Shown piece by piece: positions 3,586-33,631 of a DNA stretch of 64,000 bases. The DNA is from Escherichia coli (GTDB taxonomy: Bacteria > Pseudomonadota > Gammaproteobacteria > Enterobacterales > Enterobacteriaceae): NCBI RefSeq assembly GCF_003018255.1, contig NZ_CP027441.1; one strand, written 5' to 3'. The position numbers and the translations under genes are program-made. Each line of letters starts with the position of its first letter. The stretch's first letter is position 1. The notes below the pieces were generated by a model, which saw only the letters and a program-made list of their open reading frames with translations, was not told the DNA's origin and searched no databases.

Positions 3586-5205
3586 ATGAATAAAAAAATT
3601 CTTGCCATTATGATTGCCGCCGCTCTGTTACAGGGCTGTGCCAGTTACAGACAGCTTGAGAGCACAAGAAAGGAAGCCGTTGCGGAACAACAACGGGCAC
3701 GGGAAATGATGTCTGATCTGCGAACCCGGACGCCGGTTGTTAAGGAATCCTCACGACAATGGATCAATCCCCGTCCGGTCATGGATAAAAACACCGGCAA
3801 AACCGTTCCCGGTTGTCCCATTGTCATTCATACCCGTCAGAGCATCACCCTTCAGCAGGTGGTTCAGCGGATCACGGAAAGCTGCCATATTCCGGTACGG
3901 ATCACACCTGATGTACTGGCATACCTGAATACATCCACAACCGGCAGCACACAACAAATCCAGGGCGCGTTACCCCCACCGGATGCGAGCGGCATGGTTC
4001 CCCTTGCCGCCATTGGCGCATCCGACACGCCACCATCCCGTTTGCCGGGAAATACCGCAGCACTGTCTGAACTGAATGCCTCCGGCCTGACGACCCTGCT
4101 GAATGCGGTCTCCTCCCGTCTCGGTATATCCTGGCGCTATGACGGCTCGCATATCATCTTCTATTATCTCGAGACACAGACCTTCCCCATCACCTATATG
4201 GACAGTCAGGTGGCCTATAACGCCACTGTGGTCAGCGGCACCATGTCCTCAAACGGCTCATCAGGAGGCAGTGCATCAAATGCCATTTCCGGTGATGCCA
4301 GCAATACCCAGACCACCTCCGTGGATATGAAGTCTGCGCTGTATCAGGATGTGAAAAATGCGGTCACATCAATGCTGACCCCGGGTATCGGACGCATGTT
4401 CATGTCCACGGGCTTTATCACCGTCACAGATAATCCACAGGTTCTGGAAACGGTCCGGGCATTCATTGAAAAACGCAATGAAGAGATGAAACGTCAGGTG
4501 GTGCTGAATGTGGAAATTCTGAGTATCCGGAAAACCCGCAATGAGCAGGCCGGTATCGACTGGAACGCAGTCTTCAGCGACAGAACGCTGGGACTGAGTC
4601 TCGGCAGCACATTCACCAGTGCAGCCAGTGATGCCATCACAGGTGGTGTTTCCATTGTGGACGGTAAACTCACCGGTTCAAAAGCCTTCCTGAAAGCATT
4701 GTCTTCCCAGGGGGATGTCAGTGTGGTGACCCAGAACTCTGCCGTCACCAAAAACCTGACGCCGGTGCCAATGCAGATCGCCAATCAGCAAAGTTACATC
4801 GAGAGTGTGACGACGGATACCACAGCCAATGTCGGCTCATCCACCTCCCTGAATGCGGCCACCATCACCACCGGTTTTAACATGACCCTTCTGCCGTTCA
4901 TTCTCCCGGACTCACAGACACTGCAGTTGCTCTATTCCATGAGTCTCTCCGACAAACCGGTTATTGAGAATTATGAGAGCGGTGGAAGTAAAGCCCAGCT
5001 GCCGAATGTGGATCTGAAAACCATCAATCAGACCGTGGATCTGAAATCCGGGCAGACGGTCATTATCAGTGGCTTCCAGCAGTCAGGACGTCGCAGCGGA
5101 AAACAGGGGGTAGGCACGCCGGGATTCTTCGGTCTTGGCGGTGGGATCAACAGTGAAAACGACGACACCATTCTCGTGGTGCTGATCACGCCCAATATCA
5201 TCTGA
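3586..5205 (+). CDS. pilN: secretin-family outer-membrane lipoprotein PilN
   Basis: 539 aa; lipobox LQGC; Ser/Thr/Gly-rich beta-domain typical of secretins; position. Confidence 0.8.
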   Translation: MNKKILAIMIAAALLQGCASYRQLESTRKEAVAEQQRAREMMSDLRTRTPVVKESSRQWINPRPVMDKNTGKTVPGCPIVIHTRQSITLQQVVQRITESCHIPVRITPDVLAYLNTSTTGSTQQIQGALPPPDASGMVPLAAIGASDTPPSRLPGNTAALSELNASGLTTLLNAVSSRLGISWRYDGSHIIFYYLETQTFPITYMDSQVAYNATVVSGTMSSNGSSGGSASNAISGDASNTQTTSVDMKSALYQDVKNAVTSMLTPGIGRMFMSTGFITVTDNPQVLETVRAFIEKRNEEMKRQVVLNVEILSIRKTRNEQAGIDWNAVFSDRTLGLSLGSTFTSAASDAITGGVSIVDGKLTGSKAFLKALSSQGDVSVVTQNSAVTKNLTPVPMQIANQQSYIESVTTDTTANVGSSTSLNAATITTGFNMTLLPFILPDSQTLQLLYSMSLSDKPVIENYESGGSKAQLPNVDLKTINQTVDLKSGQTVIISGFQQSGRRSGKQGVGTPGFFGLGGGINSENDDTILVVLITPNII

Positions 5206-26894: not shown

Positions 26895-27604
26895 AAAACG
26901 AACATGAAGATCCCGGCAGTTTTGGCGAAACAACGACACCGGCATCCGGCAAATCCTTCCTGAAACGCCAGTATATGGGATACAGCCTGCCAGTCTGGGC
27001 TGGCTGTGTCCTCATCATCCTGGCCGCAGTCTGGTACAAGTTTCTGCGGACACCCTCAGAGCCCCCTGCAGATGCAGGCTTCGCGGTCACACCGCCCGCT
27101 GCTGAAAGCTGGGCAGAGCCCATGCCCATGACGGAGACCGGGAGCGGAAACACCATGTCCGCGCCTCCTGTCACCCCACAGGCAGACATGCAGCAGCTTG
27201 CCCGTGACCTGAAAGCAGAGCTGGACAGGCGGGATGAGGAAATCCGACGTACCCTGACCATGCTGAAAGAGAGCATCACAACCCTTGGCGACACCATACG
27301 GAAAGATGAGGCCTGGGCACAGGAAACCCGTCAGTTGCTTGATGAAACCCGTAAGCAGGTGCATGCCCTGCAGATGCAGGGACCACTGCAAATCCCGACC
27401 GGGAATAACGGCCAGTCAACGAAAACCCCGCCTTCCCGCCTGCAGGGCATGAAAATCATGTCGGTGGAAAAAGGAATGGCCTGGATCCGCTGGCAGGGTA
27501 GCGCCTGGGCAGTACGGGAAGGTGACAGGCTGGGGAATATCACCATCACCCGGATTGAACCGTCCAGCCGCTCAGTCATCACCTCTGCCGGTACATTACG
27601 ATGA
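26891..27604 (+). CDS. traP: conjugal transfer protein TraP
   Basis: 237 aa; single transmembrane segment; start overlaps traO stop. Confidence 0.6.
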   Translation: MKNEHEDPGSFGETTTPASGKSFLKRQYMGYSLPVWAGCVLIILAAVWYKFLRTPSEPPADAGFAVTPPAAESWAEPMPMTETGSGNTMSAPPVTPQADMQQLARDLKAELDRRDEEIRRTLTMLKESITTLGDTIRKDEAWAQETRQLLDETRKQVHALQMQGPLQIPTGNNGQSTKTPPSRLQGMKIMSVEKGMAWIRWQGSAWAVREGDRLGNITITRIEPSSRSVITSAGTLR

Positions 27605-28131
27605 TGAGCATTGATGCCCTGACAGCCATAGAGAACTTTGCCAGCGGTATATTCAGTGCAGGCATGGAGTTTCTCTTCACCTGGGGAGAGCTGCTGGGGA
27701 TTATCGGCCTGATTGGTCATCTGATGCGCGCCCGGGCAGAAGGGCGTCACAGTATGGGACCGGGAAAATTTATCGCCGGTATCGTCATCTGCGGCATGCT
27801 GGTCGCCCTGCCATCCTTCATCAATGCCGGGGGTACCCAGATGGGATTCAGGGCAGATTCCTTCGGCCCTATCGCTTATGTACAACCAACCACCTTTGGT
27901 GCCGCTGCCGGTGCCGCCAATGCCATGCTCTCACTGGTAAAACTGGCCGGAGTGGGGTTTGCCATGAACGGCATTTCCATCTGGCGTAAATCCCTGCTGG
28001 ACGGGCATACCGCCCTGAGCAGCAGTGAGTCCATCAGCAAAGGAAACGTCAAGTTTGTTGCCGGCGTTCTGCTGGTTTTTATCGATCGCGTCATCGATGC
28101 CTCTCTGGCGAGTCTTGGTCTCGCCTTCTGA
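27601..28131 (+). CDS. traQ: conjugal transfer membrane protein TraQ
   Basis: 176 aa, hydrophobic; overlapping start/stop; position. Confidence 0.6.
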   Translation: MMSIDALTAIENFASGIFSAGMEFLFTWGELLGIIGLIGHLMRARAEGRHSMGPGKFIAGIVICGMLVALPSFINAGGTQMGFRADSFGPIAYVQPTTFGAAAGAANAMLSLVKLAGVGFAMNGISIWRKSLLDGHTALSSSESISKGNVKFVAGVLLVFIDRVIDASLASLGLAF

Positions 28132-28177
28132 TCCACATTCATTTTCAGTAATTCAGTCTGTTAGTTAAGGAGACTAT

Positions 28178-28576
28178 ATGTCACGATTCCGTGCCATGGC
28201 GGCGCGTCTGTGCGCTGCATTTATTTATGTTCAGTTATGCCTGGTGGCCTGCCGTGACCGGCTGATACGCCTGTTACTTCTGCTTCCCGTGATACTGCTG
28301 CCCCACACAGCGATGGCAAACACCCTATTCGATATGATCAAAACCGTTGGCGATGGTGCAAAAGGCTCCAGCAGTTCATTTGTGGCCATCGCTCAGGTTA
28401 TTGGCCTGGTGCTCTTTATTGCCGGCCTGCTTGGCCTCAAACAAATCGGTAAAAAACCCGGAGCAGGGCTGGCCTGCATACTGTCCATTGTGGTCGGTGC
28501 CTGTCTTGCCGTCGTACCGGAAATGATGAGCAGTGGACAGAAAACGCTCGGTCTTTCTCCGGTCTCCATCAGTTAA
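28178..28576 (+). CDS. traR: conjugal transfer membrane protein TraR
   Basis: 132 aa; signal-like N-terminus and second hydrophobic helix; position. Confidence 0.6.
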   Translation: MSRFRAMAARLCAAFIYVQLCLVACRDRLIRLLLLLPVILLPHTAMANTLFDMIKTVGDGAKGSSSSFVAIAQVIGLVLFIAGLLGLKQIGKKPGAGLACILSIVVGACLAVVPEMMSSGQKTLGLSPVSIS

Positions 28577-28632
28577 TCCACAACGGCACCGGTTTCCCGG
28601 TGCCGTCTTCACACAATGAAGAGGACCAGACC

Positions 28633-28884
28633 ATGTCCTGTGAGCTGCCCCCTTTCACCCTGCTCAGAACAGAGCACGGCAACGTGATTGCCCGCGACAA
28701 CCGGGATAATCAGGAGTTTGTGTTTGCAGAATGTTATTCCACCGCCATCGCAGCACTGATTCTGGCTGCCGTCACCCTGTATACAGAGAGAAAAACGTAT
28801 GAACAAAACACCGCCACTCATCGCCCCGGCCCGGGAACGCTGGCTTTTCCCGCTCCCGCAACCGGACACGGTATTCAGCGGTGA
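28633..28884 (+). CDS. small protein in the traS slot
   Basis: 83 aa from MSCELPPF with one hydrophobic helix; 3' end overlaps the next ORF by 86 nt, so one of the two boundaries is uncertain. Confidence 0.4.
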   Translation: MSCELPPFTLLRTEHGNVIARDNRDNQEFVFAECYSTAIAALILAAVTLYTERKTYEQNTATHRPGPGTLAFPAPATGHGIQR

Positions 28885-29617
28885 ATCCCTGCTGCCACCA
28901 CCCGTGCTCTCAACACCCGGACGCTGTCCCTGCTGTCGCAGGACCGTCACTCACCGCTTCATTCTGGAGGATTCATGGCCATTACAGCAGATGGCTGACA
29001 CCTGCCGGGATACGGTCGTCCTGCTGGAAAAAAACCTCACCCGGGTGATGCGCCTGAAAAAACATCCGGTACCGGAAAACGCTGACGAAAAAAAGAAACA
29101 CACCCGAACCCTGCAGGATGCGGAGCGGTCCCTGGCACAGGCCCGCCTGTCGGCCAGGCGACTGGCCCTGCGTCATGTGGAAAAGTCACAAATCGTCACA
29201 ACAGATGCACTCAGCGAAAATGAAAGTGAACTGCTGCAGCCGGAAGGCCCGCCCTTTCATCTCTGTGCCTTCTGCCACGCCTGGCACTGCCTGAACGGCT
29301 ACGCTGCCGCACAGGGGGTGATGGTCTGGCTCCCTGATTTGCATCCGGCCTCGGTAGTTGCTCTCAATGCACGGGCACTGAAGGAAATTTTCAGCGATGA
29401 GCGTAAGCGAGTCAGACAGGGACGGGCCGTACTGAATGCCCTGGTACAGAACCGCCTGGCCGTTGAGGAGAAATTTCGCACCTGGCGTCCGGCGGATTTT
29501 GCTGATGCACTGCGCCGCTGGCCGCCGGCACAGCGTAAAACACTGCGGGAGAAAATGGACGGGGTGGCGCTCATTCTGATGCCAGATTCGTTTCCTGACA
29601 AAAAGTACGTCATGTGA
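28799..29617 (+). CDS. traT: conjugal transfer protein TraT
   Basis: 272 aa, basic/Arg-rich, soluble; position; true start may be a later ATG. Confidence 0.55.
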   Translation: MNKTPPLIAPARERWLFPLPQPDTVFSGESLLPPPVLSTPGRCPCCRRTVTHRFILEDSWPLQQMADTCRDTVVLLEKNLTRVMRLKKHPVPENADEKKKHTRTLQDAERSLAQARLSARRLALRHVEKSQIVTTDALSENESELLQPEGPPFHLCAFCHAWHCLNGYAAAQGVMVWLPDLHPASVVALNARALKEIFSDERKRVRQGRAVLNALVQNRLAVEEKFRTWRPADFADALRRWPPAQRKTLREKMDGVALILMPDSFPDKKYVM

Positions 29618-29671
29618 CACACACCGCTGCCGGTGACGTTCTGCCGGCCCCAACTGACAGAGGAACAAAAA

Positions 29672-30031
29672 ATGGATACCCTCACTGCCGGATATCAGTT
29701 TTCCGCAGATGCATTCCGGCGCTTTATTATCCGGACGCTGACTGACGATATTCCGCCTGACGGAGATGAAAAAGAGATTGCCCGGTTCATTCTCCGCCAC
29801 CCGGCATTTAACGGCGGCTGGCTGCTCTTTCTGGCTGCAGAAATTCATGAAAGATCCCGTACCCATAACAGCATCACCGTCACAGTGAGCGTCGATAACT
29901 ATCTCTCATGGATGGATATTGCCGTGTCCGGTCTCCCGGAATTACCGGATATGCCCTTCTGTGATTTTTTCATTCGCCGCCAGCAGTTTATTTATCCGGG
30001 TGTACCCCCGACAAAATCAGGAGAAGAATGA
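29672..30031 (+). CDS. hypothetical protein (119 aa)
   Basis: ATG after GAGGAA; no motif; between traT and traU. Confidence 0.4.
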   Translation: MDTLTAGYQFSADAFRRFIIRTLTDDIPPDGDEKEIARFILRHPAFNGGWLLFLAAEIHERSRTHNSITVTVSVDNYLSWMDIAVSGLPELPDMPFCDFFIRRQQFIYPGVPPTKSGEE

Positions 30032-30411
30032 TGAAAATTCACCGCATATCCCCGGAGACGCTTATAACACTCATCCTCGCACACCTGGCCGGAAAAGCTG
30101 ACAGTACCGCCAAAGAAGAGCATCGGCTACTCCGTCGGTTCCTTCGGGATGATGACGGCAGGCTGGCCGGCATACTGCTGAATATTGCCGGAATACTTCA
30201 GTTCAACAGGGAATTAAGCGCCCGGCATAATTATCCGGCCACACCCCTGACTGATTTTTCATTAAGGAAACGGGGAAAACAACTACATCTCTGTCTCTGC
30301 AGTCTCCGTTTCTTTTATATCCCCCCTGTATTTATACGAAATGAAAGAAGAAAATGTATTGTTGTACATATTAATAAAATCACTTATCCGCCAGTAAATT
30401 CACTACGCTGA
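30028..30411 (+). CDS. hypothetical protein (127 aa)
   Basis: Start overlaps the previous stop; Arg-rich; followed by a 160-bp AT-rich spacer. Confidence 0.4.
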   Translation: MMKIHRISPETLITLILAHLAGKADSTAKEEHRLLRRFLRDDDGRLAGILLNIAGILQFNRELSARHNYPATPLTDFSLRKRGKQLHLCLCSLRFFYIPPVFIRNERRKCIVVHINKITYPPVNSLR

Positions 30412-30586
30412 CAGCGTGTTTCCACCTTATTACATTTTTATTATTAACTGTAATCACACAGAAATACGCACCTGTCCCTCAACAGATTATTTATTTTCTC
30501 TGCTGTTTTTTCATGCCACATCCCCTGCTGTGGCATCAAAAAATATCAGACCGTGATGATTCATCCTTACCGGAGTGCTCCATGCC

Positions 30587-33500
30587 ATGAATATCAACCG
30601 CATTATTTTTGCCATTGAAGACTGTATCAGTACCCTGTCACGGTATTCCGTTTCCGCATTCTTCCCCGATTACTGTGATCTGCACACCGTCATCGGTCTG
30701 GACCAACAGGACCGCGAACGCCGCCCCTGGCTGAAAGCCCCCTACATTGCCACCACCAAACAGGGGTATTACCTTTCCGTCTTTGAAATCAGCGGTGCCC
30801 TGAAAGAAATGGATGAAAACCCGGACCTGACAGCCCCCGGCACACTGGAATCACTGATTACAGCGCTGGCCGAGCGAATGAACACTGCCTATAAAAACAC
30901 CGGTCACAAAATCAGTTTTGTTTTCGAACGCGATCCGGAGCGTGGAAGGGATGAAATCGAAGCCATGCTCTTACCCCAGCGAAAATCCATCGCACGCACG
31001 GGGATCCTGCTTCAGGACGTTCTGGATGAAAAAGTCACCACACTCACCCCCTGGCTTGTCCGGGAACGCTGCTGGCTGACCGTCTGGAGCTCTGAAGAAC
31101 TGCTGAGCCGGACCGATCGCAAGGACCACCAGACCCGTATCAGGAAACTCGCTGAACACGCTCCGCCAGCCCGATTTGCGCAGGATCCATGGCGCTGGAC
31201 ACTTTCCGCACTCAAAATACGGCATGACGCCTTTCTGGACACGCTGGAGCAGGCCCTGACACATGATTCTGATGGTCTGCTGGTTCGCCTGATGGATATT
31301 CATGAAGTGGGACGGGAAATCCGCCGTCAACTGGAGCGCAACAGCACACCTGCAGTATGGCAGCCTCATCTGCCTGAAGATGCCCGTCCTGCCGGCTGGC
31401 GACAGGGCGAGGATACCTCTGTATTCCACGCACCGTCGCTGAATCTGCAGTTATTCACCACACAGCCTGAAACACACGGCAGCCTGATAAAGGCCGGTGA
31501 CCTCTGGCACGGTATGGTCGCCATTACCCTGCCACCCCAGAATCTGCGGACATTCAACCAGCTGGTCAGGGATGTGCCCCGCGCAATCCCCTGGCGTATC
31601 CGGATGGATCTGATGCCCGGCGGCATGAAGGCGCTTGGGGTCAAGAAAACCCTGCTGACCTACAGCAGCTTTATTTCCCCTCTCCGGCCCATGTATGACT
31701 CGGTGATGATGCTGAATGACATCAACAAACATGATCCGGTCTGTATCATGACCATTGTTGCCACCACATGGGGAAACAGCCGGGAAGTCTGTACCCGCAA
31801 CCAGGCTCTCCTGAAATCTGCGCTGGAAGGCTGGGGAGTATGCGGCACCACCACCACCTTCGGTGATCCGAGACGTACCTGGGTGAACACGGTTCTGGCG
31901 GCCTCCCACGGTTCCGGTCCAGTCCCCCTTTACCCGCCCCTTTCACACGCCCTTTCCCTGTTTCCCCTGAACAGGGCCGGCTCTGTCTGGCGGGGACAGG
32001 GAAATCTGATGATGCACACCGAAGACGGCTCTGCATGGGAGGTCGCGCTGGCATCGTCACAACAGAACAAGCACACGGAACTGACGCCCGGCGCACCCGG
32101 TCTGGGCAAATCGGTACTCATCAACGCACTGTCGGAGATCCAGATAGCCTCAGCCCAGAAGAACCTGCCTTTCATTGCCTATATCGACAAGGGATTCAGT
32201 GCACAGGGACTGGTACAGCTTATCCGTGACAGCCTGCCGGAGCAGAGAAAGGACGAAGCCGTGGGGATCATTCTGAGCAATGATCCGGAACACACCCGTA
32301 ACCTGTTTGATGTGATGTACGGTGCTAAAAAACCCGCCACCCCGGAAAAGAACTTCATGGTATCTGTACTCTGCGCACTGTGCGTGGATACCGGCACCGG
32401 TCAGCCCTGTAATCCCGGTGACACCCGGCAAATCATAAGCAACCTGGTGGATCTGGCCTTCAGGGAGTATGGCGAAAACAACCCCAGACTGTACCGTGCA
32501 GGAACAGAGCCCCTTGTGGATCTCGCCCTGGAAGAGAGTGGCATCGCAGAACAACATGACGCTGGATGGTGGAATGCTGCCACCTGGTTTGAAATCAGGG
32601 ACATGCTGCATATGGCTGGCAATATCCCCGCAGCCCAGCGGGCACACTACCAGGCCATGCCCCTGCTGGCTGAAATGTCCGCCCTGCTGGGACAGCCATC
32701 CATCCGGGATGTGTTCGGCACAGTTCAGCGCGATAACTCAGCAGAATTGTTACTGGACTACATCCGCCGTGCCCTCGTTCAGGGACACAGTGACTACCCG
32801 ATGATGTCCGGCTGTACCCGGTTTATGCTCAGCCCCGACACCCGCGTCGTGGCCGTTGATCTGAACAATGTGGCCGGTGACAAGACACCTGCCGGGCGTC
32901 TGCGCACCGGCATCATGTACCTGCTGGCAGGACAAATCGCCGGCGGGGATTTTGTCCTGCCGCAGTATCAGGAGGAAATACGGAAAAATCTCGACCCACG
33001 CTACCATGAGGTGATTTTCCGCCGCATTGAACAGCTTGATCAGGAGGTCAAGACCAAAGTCTATGACGAACTGCACAATGCAAAAGGGATCAATTTCATC
33101 TGGGAAGCCCTGGACACCCAGGAGCTGGAGCAGCGTAAGTTCGGGATACGCACAGTGCTGAGCACCCAGCTACTGCAGGACTATCCACCGGCAGTTCTCA
33201 AATCCGCCAACACCCTCTGGTTGCTGCGTTACCGCCCTGACGAAATTCCGTTTCTGCGGGATAATTTTGGTGTCCCTGAAGTCACCCTGCGGCGCTTTCT
33301 GAAAATGCCGGAAGGGGCTGCACCGGATGGCAGCGGTGTCCCGGTACTGGCTGTGTTCCGTGTAAAAAACGGTACGCTGGCCCGGATCCTGAAATTCACT
33401 CTCGGTCCACTGGAGCTGTGGGCACTGAATTCCTCACCCAAAGACAGCGCCCTGAGACGTGCGCTGACGCAGGAGCTCGGGTCACTGCGGGCACGCCAGA

Positions 33501-33631
33501 TCCTGGCAGAAAACTTTCCCCGTGGTTCAGCCACCTCACTGATAGAACACCGCGCCCGTACACATGACAGTGAAAACGTCATCCATGATCTGGCTGCAGA
33601 ACTCATCCGTAAGCAGGGATATCACCTCTGA
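30587..33631 (+). CDS. traU: conjugation ATPase TraU (DotO/IcmB-like)
   Basis: 1014 aa from MNINR (track ORF starts 12 nt upstream); Walker A GAPGLGKS; size matches R64 TraU as recalled. Confidence 0.8.
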   Translation: MNINRIIFAIEDCISTLSRYSVSAFFPDYCDLHTVIGLDQQDRERRPWLKAPYIATTKQGYYLSVFEISGALKEMDENPDLTAPGTLESLITALAERMNTAYKNTGHKISFVFERDPERGRDEIEAMLLPQRKSIARTGILLQDVLDEKVTTLTPWLVRERCWLTVWSSEELLSRTDRKDHQTRIRKLAEHAPPARFAQDPWRWTLSALKIRHDAFLDTLEQALTHDSDGLLVRLMDIHEVGREIRRQLERNSTPAVWQPHLPEDARPAGWRQGEDTSVFHAPSLNLQLFTTQPETHGSLIKAGDLWHGMVAITLPPQNLRTFNQLVRDVPRAIPWRIRMDLMPGGMKALGVKKTLLTYSSFISPLRPMYDSVMMLNDINKHDPVCIMTIVATTWGNSREVCTRNQALLKSALEGWGVCGTTTTFGDPRRTWVNTVLAASHGSGPVPLYPPLSHALSLFPLNRAGSVWRGQGNLMMHTEDGSAWEVALASSQQNKHTELTPGAPGLGKSVLINALSEIQIASAQKNLPFIAYIDKGFSAQGLVQLIRDSLPEQRKDEAVGIILSNDPEHTRNLFDVMYGAKKPATPEKNFMVSVLCALCVDTGTGQPCNPGDTRQIISNLVDLAFREYGENNPRLYRAGTEPLVDLALEESGIAEQHDAGWWNAATWFEIRDMLHMAGNIPAAQRAHYQAMPLLAEMSALLGQPSIRDVFGTVQRDNSAELLLDYIRRALVQGHSDYPMMSGCTRFMLSPDTRVVAVDLNNVAGDKTPAGRLRTGIMYLLAGQIAGGDFVLPQYQEEIRKNLDPRYHEVIFRRIEQLDQEVKTKVYDELHNAKGINFIWEALDTQELEQRKFGIRTVLSTQLLQDYPPAVLKSANTLWLLRYRPDEIPFLRDNFGVPEVTLRRFLKMPEGAAPDGSGVPVLAVFRVKNGTLARILKFTLGPLELWALNSSPKDSALRRALTQELGSLRARQILAENFPRGSATSLIEHRARTHDSENVIHDLAAELIRKQGYHL

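Follow-up and report, generated by a model that had tools for sequence, protein, structure and literature searches.

Two questions are raised by the interval between traR and traU in the window, i.e. the whole 64,000-nucleotide stretch of Escherichia coli DNA that was analysed: why the genes in the positions of traS and traT overlap extensively in different reading frames, and what is encoded by two further small ORFs of 119 and 127 aa that lie between traT and traU. The interval belongs to a pO113-like I-complex (IncK/B/O/Z) plasmid, in which it forms the part of a type IVB (I-type, Dot/Icm-like) conjugation operon that runs from traR to traU. The DNA of the region is 100% identical to that of E. 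coli plasmids typed IncI-gamma/K1 and MPF_I, and the RefSeq records with this identity have the same four CDSs as the window. All four ORFs lie where the original prediction had placed them, and their conservation and substitution pattern exceed chance. The region contains the following features:

28178..28576, plus strand: traR, 132 aa, DUF6750 membrane protein, upstream edge of the slot
28583..28606, plus strand: G+C-rich hairpin with a 10-bp stem and a TTTC loop, just 3' of the traR stop
28633..28884, plus strand: traS, 83 aa from ATG 28633
28799..29617, plus strand: traT (IncI type), 272 aa, DotN/IcmJ-like by its model, with a CxxC...CxxC(H) motif
29672..30031, plus strand: ORF119, 119 aa, acidic (pI 4.9) member of the conserved paralogous pair
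30031..30411, plus strand: ORF127, basic (pI 10.5) pair member, 126 aa from the conserved second ATG
30412..30586, no strand: A+T-rich spacer before traU, G+C 33-40%, differing between plasmids
30587..33631, plus strand: traU (DotO/IcmB-type ATPase), downstream edge of the slot

TraR matches Pfam DUF6750 (E 4.9e-27) and is annotated in the identical plasmids. For traU the start ATG 30587 is annotated in the identical plasmids and has a Shine-Dalgarno dG of -6.1 vs +0.6 at GTG 30575, the start listed for this gene, which is less supported; the annotation of R64 has TraU in this position as well. Long ORFs on the minus strand, e.g. 29186-29866 (226 aa), were dismissed as a side effect of G+C-rich coding sequence because the synonymous-substitution signal sits in the plus-strand frames.

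The order and orientation traR-traS-traT-traU are the same as in R64/ColIb-P9 (IncI1), where traS also overlaps the start of traT. Similarity to the R64 proteins and position agree with the placement of traS and traT made in the original prediction. The window TraS is 66% identical over 44 aa (E 1e-19) to the IncI1/R64 TraS (WP_001277255.1, annotated in R64), and the window TraT is 61% identical to R64/pESBL-305 TraT over 260 of its 272 aa (E 5e-123). Neither protein matched F-type exclusion families (e.g. the Pfam TraT lipoprotein) in Pfam or NCBIfam; the names shared with the entry and surface exclusion proteins TraS and TraT of the F plasmid are coincidental. Compared with R64, TraS is longer in the window (83 vs 62 aa), as is TraT (272 vs 266 aa, with six extra N-terminal residues), and the gap between traT and traU measures ~970 bp instead of 89 bp. 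The window gap holds ORF119 and ORF127, which are absent from the R64 interval. The two ORFs had been left unassigned to any R64 gene, correctly so, as the 89 bp of R64 hold no such genes.

The overlap itself was confirmed: the nucleotides 28799-28884 (86 nt) are common to the 83-aa and the 272-aa ORF, whose frames differ by +1. In R64, pESBL-305 and L007, a Salmonella lineage being among them, the overlap is 17 nt. The window TraT N-terminus carries its six additional residues and has lost an out-of-frame stop, and it is because this stop is missing that TraS runs 86 nt into traT. Accordingly TraS consists of a conserved core of residues 1-55 (28633-28797) and a tail of residues 56-83 that is read out of frame across the traT start. 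An alignment of TraS from four lineages showed a conserved core and a tail that is missing in the other lineages. In comparison with p866, five of the six substitutions in the non-overlapping part of the TraS frame were synonymous, while four of the five in the overlap were non-synonymous. As judged from these substitutions the 28-aa tail appears to evolve without constraint, being ignored by selection. An open extension of 28 codons has a chance of ~40% at ~0.03 stops per out-of-frame codon (hand estimate for G+C 56-61%); such a stop-free extension is not unusual because out-of-frame stops are few at the local G+C. The favoured scenario is an ancestral overlap of traS and traT, still 17 nt long in R64 and a Salmonella lineage, that was later lengthened in the window lineage: the lost stop would let TraS read on into traT and add the 28-residue tail, with no frameshift involved.

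The original prediction had offered a misassigned start, a frameshift or translational coupling as explanations of the overlap. That the overlap is an annotation error with a wrong start, or reflects a programmed frameshift yielding a fusion of TraS and TraT, is very improbable in our judgement. Its length of 86 nt is unusual, ATG 28799 has a weak Shine-Dalgarno (dG -3.6), and the start of TraT differs among RefSeq records. However, both starts are supported by the alignment of homologues, by the Shine-Dalgarno of ATG 28633 and by the conserved N-terminus of TraT. ATG 28633 aligns with the TraS start of three other lineages and has a GAGG Shine-Dalgarno with a dG of -5.8 vs -2.4 at the alternative GTG 28600, such that scoring of the starts favours the ATG. 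GTG 28600 (giving 94 aa) was rejected as TraS start: it sits in the 3' arm of the hairpin and lacks both a Shine-Dalgarno and conservation. The p866 RefSeq record, in which TraS is given a GTG start, is misassigned.

On the TraT side, no possible start precedes ATG 28799 in the frame, and in the alignment this codon coincides with Met1 of the homologues, which is invariant. Conservation of Met1 and the N-terminal CxxC extends to all lineages. ATG 28991 was excluded as start: the 64 residues in front of it are conserved with respect to IncI1 TraT, contain the invariant C43 and C46 and change synonymously, most substitutions before Met65 being silent in the frame of TraT. Against a frameshift, no lineage has lost the start codon of TraT, and no slippery site was seen at which ribosomes could pass from the TraS frame to that of TraT. 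In R64, pESBL-305 and L007 the TraS stop follows early within traT, so that no fusion is conserved, and the tail of TraS is free to evolve. Translational coupling is plausible for traS and traT because an overlap is conserved, and is well supported for the ORF119/ORF127 pair (see below). The 208-aa TraT in the RefSeq records of pO113, p866 and RL97 results from a misassigned start. These calls should be replaced by the 272-aa form, since the short form drops two of the four invariant cysteines. The peptide MNKTPPLIAPAR would mark the long TraT product.

The cysteines also bear on what TraT is. C43, C46, C156 and C159 are invariant in seven TraT homologues down to 35% identity, and H160 is invariant in the six closer sequences. 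Zinc binding by TraT, suggested by these cysteines, is putative. In an AlphaFold2 model of TraT (pLDDT 78), residues 60-123 form a long helical hairpin and the N-terminus is disordered. When compared with the PDB using Foldseek, the best eight hits of the model were all Legionella pneumophila DotN, also called IcmJ (5X1H, 5X42 and 6SZ9, chain C), with a probability of 1.0 and E values of 2e-4 to 5e-3. The match spans ~124 of the 272 residues at 18-21% identity, with a TM-score of 0.35 when normalized by the TraT model and 0.47 when normalized by DotN, whose chains have ~200 aa. A profile search of PDB sequences with TraT did not find DotN and returned a weak mitoribosomal CxxC match alone. Two further features recall DotN: the cysteine pairs are conserved and traT lies upstream of traU, the homologue of DotO/IcmB, the window differing by the two extra genes in between. 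On the strength of the modelled fold, TraT is taken to correspond, on the plasmid, to Legionella DotN, which is a zinc-binding subunit of the type IV coupling complex. According to sources that cite Komano 2000, traT of R64 is essential and traS is not. Reading IncI TraT as a DotN-like coupling-complex subunit would tie plasmid genetics to the structural work on Legionella. In pOXA-48 an unrelated protein in the same slot, Orf38, was independently reported to be DotN-like (Nat Commun 2025, doi 10.1038/s41467-025-62404-7). Orf38 is the one gene in the traR-traU slot of pOXA-48/pCTX-M3 (IncL/M) and is reported to be needed for efficient transfer; these plasmids are reported without sequence homologues of traS and traT, and no counterpart of ORF119 or ORF127 has been described for them.

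We now turn to the two ORFs between traT and traU. Their substitution patterns and start signals indicate that ORF119 and ORF127 are real protein-coding genes. For ORF119, dN/dS was 0.19-0.26 in comparison with L008/L011 at a dS of about 0.9-1.1, and for ORF127 0.32-0.46; both values leave out pairs with pO113 (L003), in which an internal stop shifts the codon alignment. Each ORF has a Shine-Dalgarno (GAGG with a dG of -6.0 for ORF119 and AGGAG with a dG of -7.4 for ORF127), and the C-terminal strand of ORF127 together with K108 is conserved despite A+T-rich DNA. The junction of the two reads ATGATGA in the window, the ORF127 product having 127 aa if read from the first ATG at 30028, and is ATGA or TAATG in seven of nine lineages. 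The overlap of the ORF127 start with the ORF119 stop suggests translational coupling. The antisense ORFs that are called in NZ_CP055049 where the homologues of the pair lie are probably wrong. Reference plasmids carry the same ORFs, as the original prediction had allowed for; they are listed there as hypothetical, with no experimental product.

ORF127 is homologous to the ORF119 family according to hhalign (probability 93.5%, E 2.3e-7), and a duplication may have given rise to the two as distant paralogues, one acidic and one basic. The charges of the pair are opposite in nearly all lineages, with a pI of 10-11 for the basic partner. In a model of ORF119 fused to ORF127, both halves adopt a beta-alpha-alpha-alpha-beta-beta-beta arrangement, with a pTM of 0.75 for a fusion with a 25-residue flexible linker. 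The two proteins are thus predicted to pack together as a heterodimer, a prediction from one AlphaFold2 run on an artificial fusion with nine sequences.

Searches for known relatives gave little. TraS, TraT, ORF119 and ORF127 yielded sub-threshold noise and nothing more in Pfam, NCBIfam, PADLOC and PHROGs, and a Pfam scan of all members of the deep alignments gave no match. For ORF119 and ORF127, no PDB entry matched either, including in profile searches of PDB sequences, and a search of the literature by RefSeq accession of these proteins came back empty. These results bear on whether the pair is a toxin-antitoxin or addiction module, in which the upstream acidic protein would be the antitoxin and the downstream basic protein the toxin, as two small genes of opposite charge with a 4-nt start-stop overlap could suggest. 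We regard this as improbable, though slightly less so than an erroneous traS/traT annotation: toxin, antitoxin and defence families of the four collections are among those that did not match, and the partners are paralogous to each other, an uncommon feature among type II systems. Moreover, the pair sits within a long operon of co-directional genes, and promoter-like matches in the interval were weak and about as many as in shuffled sequence. Finally, the putative antitoxin ORF119 is broken while the putative toxin ORF127 is intact in pO113 and in IncK2 blaCMY-2 plasmids, and such a loss of the antitoxin argues against an active toxin.

The distribution of the pair is distinctive. It occupies the traR-traU slot in at least five divergent I-type lineages (the window, L007, L008/L011, L014, L015/16 and L017), and homologues of ORF119 down to 28% identity always lie in this slot; IncI1 lacks the pair. 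Homologues outside such operons were found neither among 1.84 billion representative proteins nor in a collection of 5.8 billion protein sequences. An ORF119 motif scanned against 100,044 species-representative genomes gave no relative, and no close relatives were returned from 72,556 plasmids when P0054 and P0056, two distant homologues, served as tblastn queries. Between the window and L014 the divergence of the pair (31% and 28% identity) tracks that of TraT (35%). It would thus seem that I-type transfer operons passed the pair on by inheritance, with the DotN-like gene as its constant neighbour. Compared with L008, however, ORF119 is 65% similar and TraT 37%, which could mean that the pair was exchanged between plasmids rather than strictly co-inherited.

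At the same time the pair is frequently damaged. In pO113 a nonsense mutation places a stop at W50 of ORF119 and leaves ORF127 intact, in ~216 plasmids the pair is deleted with a remnant alone left, and in IncK2 an ISEcp1-blaCMY-2 insertion at codon 32 splits ORF119, again with ORF127 intact. This insertion was described as being "between traT and traU" (PMC5350095); for resistance plasmids our data mean that the epidemic IncK2 blaCMY-2 insertion interrupts a conserved gene. The natural losses indicate that the pair is dispensable, and the frequent loss from successful conjugative plasmids suggests that its contribution to transfer is small or conditional.

Such losses would fit cargo equally well. 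ORF119 and ORF127 could be passengers in a permissive gap of the tra operon that are linked to the secretion machine neither physically nor functionally, for example a small DNA-binding regulator, as the pI of the basic partner may suggest, or a factor made during transfer that counters defences or interacts with the host. The gap between traT and traU is a hotspot of variation, with the ISEcp1-blaCMY-2 insertion, extra unrelated ORFs in L007, L014 and L017, and an insert in pO26_H19_1, in which 30413-30582 are swapped for a different ~740 bp sequence with a minus-strand ORF. We nevertheless consider a passenger role unlikely, if the strongest of the competing explanations: the pair keeps its slot and its orientation in the operon across lineages that are as divergent as the T4SS genes (28-35% identity), and its homologues are confined to such operons, while typical cargo is more mobile.

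We therefore favour, with moderate confidence, a reading in which traS and traT are genuine with correct starts, and ORF119 and ORF127 are real paralogues, predicted to form a heterodimer, that would serve as a non-essential auxiliary transfer factor. The coupling complex or the substrate in transit would be the most likely target of the heterodimer; its basic subunit ORF127 could bind nucleic acid, and the pair would modulate transfer without enabling it. Should it act in transfer, the pair would count as a new accessory component in a plasmid family of clinical importance; otherwise it would be one more small orphan gene family. A more specific and rather doubtful version is that the pair is an unrecognised heterodimeric module which docks on the TraT/TrbA/TrbC coupling complex and tunes the choice of substrate or the efficiency of delivery, the substrates being relaxase-DNA, Sog primase or other proteins. 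It would then be the conjugative counterpart of Legionella IcmS-IcmW in role and not in ancestry. IcmS and IcmW are two small proteins that form a heterodimer acting with the type IVB coupling complex (PMC12857230). Their likeness to ORF119/ORF127 is a functional analogy alone: no similarity in sequence or structure to IcmS or IcmW was detected and, unlike IcmS-IcmW, ORF127 is strongly basic and the two partners are paralogous to each other.

The hairpin downstream of traR was obtained from an RNA fold of 28570-28640. Six other lineages also have a strong hairpin at this position, with stems that differ in sequence.

The traR-traU interval of the I-type transfer operon is shared with many other plasmids. 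Window 27600-31400 was matched at 100% identity by several E. coli plasmids of the types IncFIB + IncI-gamma/K1 and MPF_I and at 99.6% by pO113; 449 plasmid records reached an identity of at least 90%. The annotated order in the matching plasmids is traO-traP-traQ-DUF6750 (traR)-hypothetical-TraT-hypothetical-hypothetical-traU. The ORF listing confirmed the 86-nt out-of-frame overlap and the two extra ORFs at the positions where the original prediction had placed them. Start candidates were scored by their anti-Shine-Dalgarno pairing energy (dG):

28178-28576, plus strand: traR (DUF6750), from the annotation in identical plasmids
28633-28884, plus strand: traS, 83-aa ORF, hypothetical in matching plasmids, named from the R64 comparison; ATG 28633, dG -5.8; GTG 28600, dG -2.4
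28799-29617, plus strand: traT, 272-aa ORF, from matching-plasmid annotation and the R64 comparison; ATG 28799, dG -3.6; ATG 28991, dG -1.5
29672-30031, plus strand: ORF119, 119 aa, hypothetical in matching plasmids; ATG 29672, dG -6.0; GTG 29633, dG +0.7
30028-30411, plus strand: ORF127, 127 aa, hypothetical in matching plasmids; ATG 30028 / 30031, dG -7.4
from 30587, plus strand: traU, annotated start; ATG 30587, dG -6.1; GTG 30575, dG +0.6

For traU the mechanical ORF begins at GTG 30575; ATG 30587 has a Shine-Dalgarno sequence, the annotated start and the MNINRI N-terminus of the homologues.

A misassigned start had been suspected as the cause of the overlap. This is not supported, since ATG 28633 and ATG 28799 outscore their alternatives, TraT Met1 is invariant in seven homologues, and most changes with respect to p866 between 28885 and 28990, i.e. 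upstream of ATG 28991, are synonymous in the TraT frame. GTG 28600, which lies within the 3' arm of a hairpin and pairs more weakly than ATG 28633, was rejected as TraS start, as was a TraT of 208 aa, which would lose the invariant C43 and C46. RefSeq annotation is inconsistent in this region: the 208-aa TraT is called from an internal ATG in the records of pO113, p866 and the RL97 plasmid, the p866 record starts TraS at a GTG within the hairpin, and antisense ORFs take the place of the ORF119 and ORF127 homologues in NZ_CP055049.

In a four-lineage alignment the conserved TraS core reads approximately TLxRTExGNVIAxDxRDxQEFxFAECxSxxIAxxILxAVxxYT. In R64-type plasmids and a Salmonella lineage the stop follows about ten residues past this core, and in the window and p866 TraS continues for 28 residues further. 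DNA alignment showed that in R64 the Ile-Lys codons of TraT supply a TAA stop, and that this stop is missing in the window, where TraT has six additional N-terminal residues. By a hand estimate, 28 open codons have a chance of roughly 40% at the local G+C, such that no special mechanism is needed. Compared to p866, 5/6 changes in the traS-only part fell on third positions of the TraS frame and were synonymous there; within the overlap 4/5 fell on third positions of the TraT frame and were non-synonymous for TraS. These frame-specific substitutions indicate that TraS is a real gene whose tail is free of constraint and that TraT is coding from 28799. The proposed frameshift found no support either: no slippery site leading ribosomes from the TraS into the TraT (+1) frame was seen, and the 17-nt overlap of R64-type plasmids conserves no fusion. 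The overlap is an ordinary by-product, already implicit in reference plasmids.

In R64 (NC_005014) traS and traT encode 62 and 266 aa, overlap by 17 nt and are followed by a gap of only 89 bp before traU; the TraS and TraT proteins of pESBL-305 are identical to those of R64. Between window and R64, identity was 66% across the TraS core and 61% across 260 residues of TraT. About 1,400 IncI1-type plasmids align only to window 28667-29592 (traS and traT) with ~70% DNA identity, and tblastn matches to ORF119 occurred in 439 plasmids only, all from the K/B/O/Z-like group. The extra ORFs are therefore not R64 genes, in agreement with the earlier inability to assign them.

The AlphaFold2 model of TraT (pLDDT 78, pTM 0.65, residues 1-33 disordered) had as its best eight PDB matches exclusively DotN (IcmJ) of Legionella pneumophila, with a probability of 1.0, E-values from 2e-4 to 5e-3 and about 124 aligned columns; the DotN chain of the coupling-complex structure 6SZ9 was among them. 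A sequence-profile search of PDB sequences with TraT did not detect DotN. The structural match agrees with the report that Orf38 of pOXA-48, which occupies the traR-traU slot, is DotN-like (doi 10.1038/s41467-025-62404-7). Four cysteines (C43, C46, C156 and C159) do not vary among seven homologues, even at 35% identity, and H160 is invariant in the six closer sequences. In Pfam and NCBIfam, TraS and TraT matched no exclusion family, and they are unrelated to their namesakes of the F plasmid. According to published R64 genetics, traT is indispensable and traS dispensable (Komano 2000, as cited); in a pESBL transposon screen both came out as required, perhaps through polarity.

Homologues of the extra ORFs from other plasmids gave dN/dS values (Nei-Gojobori) of 0.19-0.26 for ORF119 at dS about 0.9-1.1 (0.19-0.54 in close pairs) and of 0.32-0.46 for ORF127. 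Judged from their sequences, both are real genes. Conserved residues extend into the A+T-rich 3' part of ORF127, where one lysine is invariant and a terminal strand is predicted. Homologues of ORF127 begin with MKIHR, which places the conserved start at the second ATG (30031). Stop and start codons of the two ORFs overlap (ATGA or TAATG) in 7/9 lineages, the junction being ATGATGA in the window and TAATG in one plasmid; this suggests translational linkage. Profile-profile comparison aligned the two families over 92 columns (93.5% probability, E 2.3e-7), and at the sequence level they are paralogues. A model of the fusion ORF119-(GGGGS)5-ORF127, built from nine paired sequences, predicted for both halves a strand, three helices and then three or four strands in identical order (pLDDT about 80-90 in structured parts, pTM 0.75). 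Going by pLDDT and pTM, we read this as a confident prediction that the two halves would pack against each other.

Among 5.8 billion clustered proteins only 34 clusters were found for ORF119 and 20 for ORF127, and those with a name all belong to E. coli, Shigella or Salmonella. Three further, distant relatives of ORF119 (28-35% identity) came from a profile search run exhaustively on 1.84 billion representatives. All homologues with sufficient flank lie between DUF6750 traR-like and traU-like ATPase genes of an I-type cluster, beside the partner ORF. The pair follows traS-traT in the Salmonella lineage (L007), follows traR and precedes nuc and a TraT-like gene in E. coli loci L008 and L011, and precedes a 206-aa TraT-like gene in L014. 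In L017 the partner ORF is uncalled but present; two metagenome contigs (L015, L016) carry the pair and are too short on the flank to show the slot. The data show selected paralogous genes that are co-inherited with I-type transfer operons beside a DotN-like gene.

Other contents of the slot vary. In one E. coli I-type lineage (L008/L009 5801-7057; L011 4579-5835) nuc (PLD family) and a 235-aa TraT-like gene follow the pair homologues, and traS is absent. Further unassigned genes occupy the slot in other I-type lineages (L007 5889-7042; L017 3-536; L014 5187-5908): a 196-aa protein in L007 and a 177-aa protein in L017 with the common motif WPDxxITxHDVLWFLPL, a 142-aa hydrophobic protein in L007, and two paralogous signal-peptide proteins (107 and 111 aa) in L014.

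Plasmids can do without the pair. IncI1 lacks it, codon W50 of ORF119 is a stop in pO113, and about 216 p866-type Shigella/E. coli plasmids retain only ORF119 residues 5-43, having lost approximately 29800-29968 and 30005-30448. In IncK2 plasmids an ISEcp1-blaCMY-2 unit, described in the literature as inserted 'between traT and traU' (PMC5350095), lies at 29767/29768, in ORF119 codon 32. A toxin-antitoxin module was considered for the two adjacent small genes; ORF127 being intact where ORF119 is broken, the paralogy, and the lack of any toxin or antitoxin family match in Pfam, NCBIfam, PADLOC and PHROGs argue against it. The mechanism inferred for ORF119 and ORF127 is a heterodimer that would help the transfer machinery but not be essential to it; its site of action may be the coupling complex or a DNA or protein substrate. 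We consider it less likely than not that the pair is directly linked to the transfer machine, and a more specific adaptor reading less probable still. The main rival reading is cargo with no relation to transfer that by chance has stayed stable in the traR-traU slot. As to whether reference plasmids show these ORFs with supported products, the ORFs are indeed present, but the two extra ones are annotated only as hypothetical genes of an orphan family, whose putative association with transfer is interesting.

Every lineage examined has a strong G+C-rich hairpin after the traR stop, with differing stem sequences (window 28583-28606; comparison loci L004 about 2410-2435, L008 4927-4952, L014 about 5129-5147). 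It may act as a partial terminator or message stabiliser, separating traQ/traR from the downstream genes. Window 30200-30600, comprising the ORF127 end and the pre-traU spacer, is A+T-rich (G+C 33-40%). In pO26_H19_1 (L013 3241-3979) ~740 bp of other sequence with a minus-strand 181-aa ORF replaces the spacer, which marks the pre-traU segment as a variable spot. A 226-aa antisense ORF (29186-29866, minus strand) covers the 3' part of traT and the 5' part of ORF119; since the plus-strand frames fit the substitution patterns better, it probably arises as a side effect of coding sequence rich in G+C.
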